Shown here: one piece after another, positions 21,975 through 22,308 of the stretch
Layout: every line of letters starts with the position of its first letter
Numbering within the stretch: position 1 is the stretch's first letter
DNA from: Candidatus Micrarchaeota archaeon
GTDB lineage: Archaea; Micrarchaeota; Micrarchaeia; CAILAH01
NCBI GenBank assembly: GCA_026419815.1
Contig: JAOAKR010000002.1
Span: 1-26,212, forward strand
Direction of reading: 5' to 3'
Length of the DNA stretch: 26,212 nucleotides
Made by a program: the position numbers and the translations under genes
Notes under the pieces: model-generated
Told to the model about the DNA's origin: nothing
The model's input: the letters and a program-made list of their open reading frames with translations, nothing else
The model's database searches: none

Positions 21975-21992
21975 GAGGGGTCACTTCCACTA
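21975..21992. repeat. Left arm of a perfect 18-bp inverted repeat
   Basis: GAGGGGTCACTTCCACTA, exact reverse complement of 22291-22308. Confidence 0.95.
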
Positions 21993-22244
21993 TTATTCCG
22001 ACTTTAATATTTCAAGGCTTTTTATCTTGCATTTATAGACGGACACGTTGCCCTTAAACTGCAAGAAAAAATTGTCCAATATTTTTTCGTGCTCCTTTGT
22101 AGTTATGATCACGGATTTTGTGGCTCTCCTTATAAAAGGCTCCATTTTTGATAAATTATAATAGAATTTTCGCTTTATTTTGTGCATTTCTAATGCATTT
22201 TGAGGGATTATGTCGTAAACATACATTGTGTCATAGCGTGACAT
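21993..22244 (-). CDS. Stand-alone Cas2/VapD-like ferredoxin-fold protein, 83 aa
   Basis: MYVYDII (Cas2 beta1 YD), basic helix KIKRKFYYNLSK, TKSVI (compare QxSVF), final strand VSVYK. AT-rich. Own TATA-like element about 26-36 nt upstream. No cas1 or CRISPR array in the window. Confidence 0.6.
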   Translation of the reverse strand: MSRYDTMYVYDIIPQNALEMHKIKRKFYYNLSKMEPFIRRATKSVIITTKEHEKILDNFFLQFKGNVSVYKCKIKSLEILKSE

Positions 22245-22290
22245 AGTTGTATCTATAGTTACAAACGCTTATATTTTTATACTATAAGAT

Positions 22291-22308
22291 TAGTGGAAGT
22301 GACCCCTC
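22291..22308. repeat. Right arm of a perfect 18-bp inverted repeat
   Basis: TAGTGGAAGTGACCCCTC, exact reverse complement of 21975-21992. Confidence 0.95.

Follow-up and report, generated by a model that had tools for sequence, protein, structure and literature searches.

The closest described systems are the replication origins of archaea, in which origin recognition boxes (ORBs) flank an AT-rich region. The common ORB derived from DoriC reads TCCA[CG]T[TG]GAAA[TC][GA]AAGGGGT, where GGGGT represents the "G-string" (PMC4164010), and the mini-ORBs of Pyrococcus have the TTCC and GAA cores in common (PMC1904270). In the part of the published account drawn on here, the ucm motif of Sulfolobus lies within the origin between the boxes and is bound by UBP, a small basic protein with many other chromosomal sites (PMC12141716). 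Under the rule used for bacteria and Pyrococcus, oriC is placed at the peak of the MK (amino/keto) curve. Haloarchaea with mapped origins have an inverted skew, with the origins at G/C-disparity peaks (PMC1868953). In the literature searched, no comparably detailed origin was found for Micrarchaeota or for other symbionts of the DPANN group.

The window analyzed in this study, the whole stretch of 26,212 nt, is one entire contig (C23) of a 567-kb assembly from the Micrarchaeia (DPANN), which is 61% complete and has a GC content of 0.525. Within the window, short inverted repeats bracket a single gene, designated p83. A preliminary description had preferred to read this segment as a miniature mobile element with a nuclease or toxin cargo, had placed an invertible switch second, and had ranked last a pair of protein-binding sites that contain ORB sub-motifs and flank an unwinding element. 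The last of these readings is the one supported by our analysis. Both the repeat and the gene are real, the repeat is functional, and the cassette is not a mobile one. With a probability of about 0.72, the cassette is the core of a chromosomal replication origin with an embedded gene. Such an origin would follow the ORB-DUE-ORB design in a new form, in which a gene replaces the spacer.

Anatomy of the bracketed locus and its boxes

The 18-mer GAGGGGTCACTTCCACTA occupies positions 21975-21992 and its exact reverse complement occupies 22291-22308. The arms bracket one ORF, p83 (21993-22244, minus strand, 83 aa), whose stop codon directly adjoins the left arm. The 298 bp of DNA between the arms is AT-rich, with a GC content of 0.30-0.33 compared to 0.525 for the genome. 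Perfect 18-nt inverted repeats around one gene and its promoter, a stop codon at the left repeat and an interior of about 32% GC had all been reported in the preliminary description. The coordinates and the reverse complement were verified, the stop codon was found to abut the arm, and the GC content was 0.325 for the p83 coding sequence and 0.30-0.315 in 200-nt windows across the interior. When up to three mismatches were allowed, the two arms were the only matches to the 18-mer in the window, where 0.02 matches were expected, and they were also the only two copies in the 567-kb assembly. The features of the locus are as follows.

14531-15565, plus strand: second Orc1/Cdc6 paralogue (344 aa), found 6-10 kb from p83 throughout family f1
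18095-18110, unstranded: palindrome copy 3, within the SNase-domain gene; kept in L003 and L004
21673-21927, plus strand: PRC-barrel gene, a p83 neighbour conserved even in distant lineages
21975-21992, minus strand: left ORB-like box; in the minus-strand reading the core TAGTGGAAGT lies inward and the string GACCCCTC outward; abuts the p83 stop codon
21993-22244, minus strand: p83, an 83-aa basic protein; its AT-rich body fills the space between the boxes; candidate duplex-unwinding region
22248-22263, unstranded: 16-nt palindrome TGTATCTATAGTTACA, located 3 nt before the ATG of p83; predicted to be a probable p83 operator or binding site
22264-22290, minus strand: AT-rich DNA that contains a TATA-like sequence and separates the palindrome from the right box; putative p83 promoter
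22291-22315, plus strand: right ORB-like box; core TAGTGGAAGT followed by GACCCCTC and continuing into a C-rich tract (the arm proper ends at 22308)
22349-23341, plus strand: rtcA (RNA 3'-phosphate cyclase), divergent from p83
23674-23689, unstranded: palindrome copy 2, within the thiI coding sequence

The rtcA gene was placed outside the module because it is retained only in part of family f1, the family of relatives that includes the window. Distant relatives with 30-40% protein identity share three DNA features: an upstream box, the palindrome and a downstream box past the stop codon. Most of the relatives read have the same core on both sides of p83. When turned into ORB orientation, the boxes of relatives have the sequence TAGTGGAAGT-NN-GGGGT(C), which matches the ORB consensus partially, with half a dyad and a spacer that is one base shorter. 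In family f1 the string that follows the core is GACCCCTC(CCC), a C-string in place of the G-string, whereas in relatives the order is the canonical one. Thus, the "non-canonical order" of ORB sub-motifs noted in the preliminary description is explained by the f1 C-string. In the window the two boxes are inverted, with the cores facing inward and the strings outward.

The 18/18 symmetry of the window arms is a local special case. Among relatives the arms agree at 18/18 positions with another sequence, at 17/18 or, in hand alignments, at about 14/18, as in L005 and L007. The window and L003 differ from each other at two positions that are the same in both arms. These are degenerate C/G positions of the ORB, and the arms of other relatives are discordant, so the seemingly concerted change carries little weight. 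On these grounds, an evolution of the arms in concert, by pairing or gene conversion, was rejected, and its signal was weak (about 1 in 16).

The exact 10-mer core was found at three sites in the assembly, which are the two arms and C34:4916. The main orc1/cdc6 gene (393 aa, TIGR02928, 354 bits) lies 36 nt downstream of the C34 core. This core and a one-mismatch partner, TAGTGGAACT, are arranged as an inverted pair with a distance of 19 nt, set against a TATA-like stretch, and this box pair at the orc1 promoter is retained in G001, G002 and G006. In G033, a stretch of 700 bp at p83 contains the core four times as well as one variant box. No other box cluster was seen on the G033 contig, apart from three same-strand cores at 18-20 kb. 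The arms are ORB-like sites and are most likely initiator-binding boxes.

The p83 protein, its palindrome and its AT-rich gene

The p83 family comprises at least 34 clusters at 50% identity, and p83 was present as a single copy in 34 of the 61 Micrarchaeia genomes searched. Residues Y8, D11, K24, R25, F27, Y28, Y29, S44 and F60 are invariant. Close relatives have pN values of 0.07-0.08 and pS values of 0.46-0.76 (dN/dS 0.06-0.10), and dN/dS ranged from 0.06 to 0.18 over all pairs for which it could be computed. p83 is a real gene under purifying selection. It encodes a basic protein of 10 kDa with a pI of 9.6. AlphaFold, when given the alignment, predicted a ferredoxin-like fold with a beta-alpha-beta-beta-alpha-beta order (pLDDT 92); the model from the single sequence was poor (pLDDT 46).

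The label "Cas2/VapD-like" given to this protein in the preliminary description stands at the level of the predicted fold and fails at the level of the family. The Foldseek comparison proposed there did rank Cas2 first among PDB structures, with weak scores (E 3e-3, TM 0.56-0.61). In VIA-align, Cas2 reached Z scores of 6.2-7.0, which are below those of TM1266 and DUF3240 (Z 8) and no higher than those of ACT, Lrp or pro-peptide folds. Thus, "Cas2-like" is a statement about a fold and not about a family. In addition, p83 had no match in Pfam, NCBIfam or PADLOC. The Cas2 profile PF09827 reached an E value of 0.09, which is not significant, in just one of 31 p83 relatives. A PDB sequence search with the p83 profile returned spurious matches only, none of them to Cas2.

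In family f1 the neighbourhood of p83 is asnB-thiI-rtcA-p83-PRC-wHTH-p121-ATPase, and it is held constant across relatives whose synonymous sites are saturated. The pairing of p83 with the PRC-barrel gene extends to distant lineages. In lineages that have no boxes, p83 lies immediately upstream of a gene for a Rad50-like ATPase (AAA_23, SMC_N, zinc hook), which indicates a role for p83 in DNA metabolism. No antitoxin partner was apparent among these conserved neighbours, which are the PRC-barrel protein or the Rad50-like ATPase.

The palindrome has the consensus TGTA(A/T)CTATAG(A/T)TACA. The assembly holds three copies, all inside the window, at the p83 promoter (22248), in thiI (23674) and in the SNase-domain gene (18095). 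At the promoter the palindrome is nearly universal among relatives and ends 0-4 nt before the p83 ATG. The thiI copy is conserved as DNA, with 88-100% identity compared to 30-59% in its flanks. Among 61 genomes, and with up to two mismatches allowed, the palindrome was found in 33 of 34 genomes with p83 and in 6 of 27 genomes without it. Each of the six p83-less genomes had a single match, as expected from the reversed control. All genomes with three or more copies had p83. This co-occurrence of protein and palindrome suggests that p83 probably binds the 16-nt palindrome, likely as a dimer.

The p83 gene was more AT-rich than its flanks at 54 of 55 loci. In the window, p83 has a GC3 of 0.44, while its neighbouring genes have values of 0.47-0.66. 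At loci flanked by boxes, the GC3 of p83 is below the flank GC (mean difference +0.08), whereas in most lineages without boxes it is above the flank GC (mean -0.05). The Mann-Whitney test of this contrast gave p 0.006 on samples that are related, and the classing of some box-bearing loci as box-less would have weakened the contrast, not created it.

Strand-composition switch and alternative explanations

A skew analysis had been proposed in the preliminary description. It placed the p83 locus at a switch in strand composition in three related genomes and in the window, with the following positions.

G033 (1,178,830-bp contig): cumulative G-C maximum at 942,236; MK minimum at 942,220; p83 at 942,198-942,428
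G055: cumulative G-C maximum at 94,940; MK minimum at 96,501; p83 at 96,464-96,700
G010: cumulative G-C maximum at 117,341; MK minimum away from the locus; p83 at 117,140-117,361
Window: cumulative G-C maximum at 23,228; MK minimum at 22,301, inside the right arm; p83 at 21,993-22,244

The cumulative G-C maximum lies no more than 1.5 kb from p83 in all three related genomes and the MK minimum lies there in two of the three, although the genomes compared are kin and these repeated coincidences are not fully independent. The asymmetry is present for genes on both strands and for intergenic DNA, which indicates an association with replication and not with gene orientation. The opposite G-C extreme of G033 is found at 305 kb, where no ORB-like cluster and nothing origin-like was seen. 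A two-origin model for G033, with a GINS module at 829 kb and p83 at 942 kb, was rejected: the GINS gene follows priS without a box pair, and the stretch at 840-912 kb is simply flat.

In G047, a relative that does not carry p83, two inverted copies of TACCGGAAGTGTGGGGT enclose 129 very AT-rich bases in an intergenic region next to a tRNA and a GINS-like gene. A sharp MK minimum is found 1 kb from this pair, with the MK maximum at a distance of 47.5% of the circle; the cumulative G-C skew of G047 is weak, and over the sequence analyzed, outside 500-700 kb, the clean V comes from the MK component only. This is a textbook ORB/AT-rich/ORB unit at the same extreme. Thus, the canonical unit and the p83 module share one extreme of strand composition.

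The locus could instead be a landmark of the replication terminus, in which p83 and its palindromes would resemble MatP and matS and the boxes would bind a protein other than an initiator, for example at a dimer-resolution or terminus-organizing site. We consider this unlikely. The sign of the skew at p83 is the one found at bacterial and Pyrococcus termini. In addition, the genes of G033 diverge somewhat from the opposite switch, as 61% of those within 200 kb point away from the 305-kb switch compared to 51% from p83. Both points count against an origin at p83, the first under the MK-peak rule. The overall bias in gene orientation (50.6% versus 49.4%) is uninformative on polarity. Weaker support for an origin comes from the rRNA transcription units, as three of the four are directed away from p83.

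Several observations weigh against a terminus. First, the boxes fit the ORB consensus for Orc1 and recur at the orc1 promoter. Secondly, the unit in G047 lies at the same extreme, and an inverted polarity has a mapped precedent in haloarchaea. Third, the switch of G033 is sharper at p83 than at the opposite point, which is a flat bottom of 20 kb. Fourth, the locus bears no likeness to the archaeal dif site (11-6-11, ...GGATATAA / TTATATC...). Neither a match to the Thermococcales dif consensus nor an 11-6-11 inverted repeat was found at the locus, and a dif-like site there was rejected; one 11-6-11 inverted repeat located 16 kb from the opposite switch of G033 is at the level of chance. Lastly, the palindromes of G055 and G013 are scattered across several contigs and are not concentrated at the p83 locus. 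Because of the haloarchaeal precedent, the unit in G047 and the lack of anything origin-like at the opposite switch of G033, replication would most likely start, and not end, at the p83 locus.

A second alternative is that the boxes form an Orc1-dependent transcriptional operator only, for p83 (and rtcA), at a place where replication does not start. The right box does sit between the divergent promoters of p83 and rtcA, and the same box pair stands beside the TATA region of orc1, a place at which G010 and G033 showed no skew switch. However, an operator does not explain the left box beyond the p83 stop codon, the strand-composition switch that coincides exactly with the locus in four genomes, the AT-rich gene body that is tied to the presence of boxes, or the five-box cluster in G033. 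For these reasons we regard a purely transcriptional role as rather improbable.

A miniature cassette with a Cas2/VapD-like toxin, either mobile (the reading preferred in the preliminary description) or invertible, whose arms would serve as terminal inverted repeats for a protein acting in trans, is very improbable. It draws on the perfect 18-nt repeats, the AT-rich interior and the Cas2-like fold, as well as on the matched change of the arms between the window and L003. However, each genome has two copies of the arm and one copy of the gene, the neighbourhood is fixed despite saturated synonymous sites, and the positions that vary in the arms are the degenerate C/G of the ORB, with discordant arms in other relatives. 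No convincing target-site duplication was found around the arms. The sole nearby direct repeat (21966-21976 and 22339-22349, with one mismatch) lies 30 nt past the right arm and is at the level of chance. As had been stated previously, no transposase or cas1 family was present among the window ORFs scanned, and cas1 was not found in the assembly, which is 61% complete. Viral contigs contained no match to the p83 protein or to the 18-mer, and the search for further copies of the 18-mer, one of the checks suggested in the preliminary description, yielded none in the assembly beyond the two arms. There was also no match to a defence family in PADLOC. The idea of an invertible switch fared no better: the cassette has the same orientation in every f1 relative read, no recombinase family was present among the window ORFs scanned, and arms that agree at only about 14/18 positions occur in some relatives. 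Regarding inverted or circular forms, the only public run showed a single form, in contigs from which rare variants could escape.

Lastly, a long-range RNA stem, in which the arms would pair in the transcript to process or stabilize the p83 mRNA, has 18 perfect pairs available in the window and L003 with changes matched on both sides, but it is extremely improbable, since the upstream arm precedes the TATA-like stretch of the p83 promoter and should be outside the p83 mRNA, complementarity falls to about 14/18 in L005 and L007, some upstream boxes of several relatives are in direct and not inverted orientation, and the outer strings of other lineages are not complementary.

Proposed origin and comparison with known systems

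An origin with an embedded gene would work as follows. The two arms would be inverted Orc1/Cdc6 origin-recognition boxes, with the cores inward and the G/C strings outward. By analogy with ORB3-DUE-ORB2 of Sulfolobus, each arm would bind the initiator with a defined polarity, and the bound initiator would load MCM onto the inter-arm stretch of about 300 bp and 31% GC. The stretch to be unwound would itself be a conserved and putatively expressed gene, which differs from known origins; the literature searched yielded no origin whose unwinding region codes for a protein, and this counts against the proposal. Since its palindrome lies at its own promoter, p83 that binds there would both regulate itself and sit within the origin. 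A p83 dimer on the palindrome, which overlaps the promoter, may repress its own gene, and p83 may serve inside the origin as an accessory factor that marks the origin region. It is possible, but on balance doubtful, that p83 represents a new family of origin-resident, sequence-specific DNA-binding proteins that reads its palindrome in the manner of E2 or EBNA1 and has its own gene as the unwinding element, with p83 transcription or occupancy coupled to origin firing or segregation.

Further points count against an origin. The main orc1 gene is not adjacent to p83, as it lies on another contig (C34) in this assembly and 65-390 kb away in relatives. An adjacent orc1/cdc6 gene is common, but not universal, among known origins. 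In addition, the nearby Orc1 gene, 6.4 kb away, is a paralogue, and the f1 string is C-rich and is not the canonical G-string.

A defined origin module would provide a landmark for closing and checking metagenome-assembled genomes and a fixed point for estimating growth rates from read depth. Orc1, the boxes, p83 and the palindrome are concrete reagents for biochemistry. If the origin reading is true, a coding gene as the unwinding region together with a scattered cognate palindrome would be a new architecture for archaeal origins, and inverted skew polarity would be extended beyond haloarchaea. If p83 also reads the palindrome and its own gene unwinds, the Micrarchaeia-type origin, with its inverted skew, would be unlike any described. 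The analysis also corrects a tempting misreading, in which inverted repeats around a Cas2-like gene are taken for a mobile toxin cassette.

The p83 module resembles oriC1-type archaeal origins (Sulfolobus ORB3-DUE-ORB2, Pyrococcus oriC and Haloferax oriC1) in that inverted boxes of the TCCA-S-T-K-GAA type with a GGGGT string flank an AT-rich region, and in that the boxes are clustered at essentially one chromosomal place, at a strand-composition switch. The inverted skew polarity at the p83 locus is shared with haloarchaeal origins. Unlike the boxes of oriC1-type origins, those at p83 keep half the dyad only (TA-S-TGGAA), and those of family f1 have the C-string in place of the G-string. Furthermore, the spacer of about 300 bp is a conserved protein-coding gene and is not non-coding, and the main orc1 gene is not adjacent to the module.

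The nearest described analogue is the ucm motif of Sulfolobus with UBP, in that the palindrome and p83 may play a comparable part (PMC12141716). The likeness is one of description; UBP has 111 aa, and in the part of that account drawn on here its gene is not described as located at the origin (PMC12141716).

The origin-binding domains of papillomavirus E2 and EBNA1 have ferredoxin-like monomers and offer a functional analogy only. These domains dimerize and use helix 1 to read palindromes at replication origins. E2 domains were weak fold matches to p83 (TM 0.44, Z 5.7), and no homology is claimed. Cas2 and VapD are similar to p83 in size (about 80-90 aa), in the ferredoxin-like order and in the invariant Asp (D11) that ends strand 1. 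Unlike these proteins, p83 has no significant sequence match, no cas1 found with it and no apparent antitoxin partner, and its gene belongs to the core genes, with one copy at a fixed locus. The cassette also recalls MITEs and casposon-type repeats, in that a small AT-rich segment lies between short perfect inverted repeats. In contrast to these elements, it shows no multiplication and no target-site duplication, no trans-acting transposase or casposase was found, and it keeps its place and its synteny across long evolutionary distances.

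Box cores at the main orc1/cdc6 promoter and in G033

The ORB-like core that flanks p83, the gene for an 83-aa ferredoxin-fold protein, recurs in the same genome immediately 5' of the main orc1/cdc6 gene (393 aa). There it forms an inverted pair in the intergenic spacer which orc1/cdc6 shares with a divergent gene for a 121-aa protein, and this promoter pair is conserved in three compared Micrarchaeia genomes (G001, G002 and G006). No skew switch was seen at orc1 in G010 or G033. Further cores were identified in G033, where those at L070, which resemble the boxes, form a second and smaller cluster.

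L059 (contig C34, own genome), 4916-4954: inverted box-core pair ACTTCCACTA / TAGTGGAACT, spacing 19 nt
L070 (G033 C1), 18,209-20,110: three TTCCACTA cores on one strand, within 2 kb
L087-L090 (G033 C1), about 354.5-408.3 kb: ORB-like core pair ATACTGGAAGT + AATTCCACTAT, 1.8 kb between the two

The last of these pairs occurs three times at a spacing of 25,989 bp, which suggests either a segment of about 26 kb in triplicate or an assembly repeat.

Genomes lacking p83 or its boxes

In G047, a genome without p83, nearly all of the strand asymmetry of contig C1 (L163-L200) is carried by the amino/keto (MK) component, whose curve is a clean V with its maximum at 404,604 and its minimum at 904,648; the cumulative G-C skew is noisy and weak. 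A GINS-like gene lies directly downstream of a box pair in this genome. In the p83-bearing genomes (G033 and our own), a primase small-subunit-like gene is followed by a GINS-like gene, upstream of which the box pair is absent.

G033 C1, 829,168-829,683: GINS-like gene
own contig C15, 6135-6674: GINS-like gene

Lineages with p83 but no boxes carry, directly downstream of p83 and on the same strand, a gene for a Rad50-like ATPase with AAA_23, SMC_N and Rad50 zinc hook domains.

L015, 3666-5981; L018, 4311-6611; L041, 1-1479 (minus strand): Rad50-like ATPase, roughly 770 aa

Palindrome copies and conserved neighbours

The 16-nt palindrome of the p83 promoter also occurs within coding sequences. 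Its thiI copy is 88-100% conserved, compared with 30-59% for the adjoining codons. Three of the five copies in G003 are spaced exactly 48 nt apart (3034, 3082 and 3130).

23674-23689: palindrome within thiI
18095-18110: palindrome within the SNase-domain gene
L051 (G003), 1737-3145: five palindromes within 1.4 kb

Two neighbouring genes in the window encode proteins of unusually high identity, 91-98% compared with about 74% for rtcA and thiI.

18620-20989, minus: 789-aa ATPase
20988-21353, plus: 121-aa protein

Their annotated starts overlap head-to-head by 2 nt, so one of the two start codons is probably in error. The ATPase shows a distant likeness to FlaI/TadA/VirB11 (E 3e-10, well under the cut-offs).
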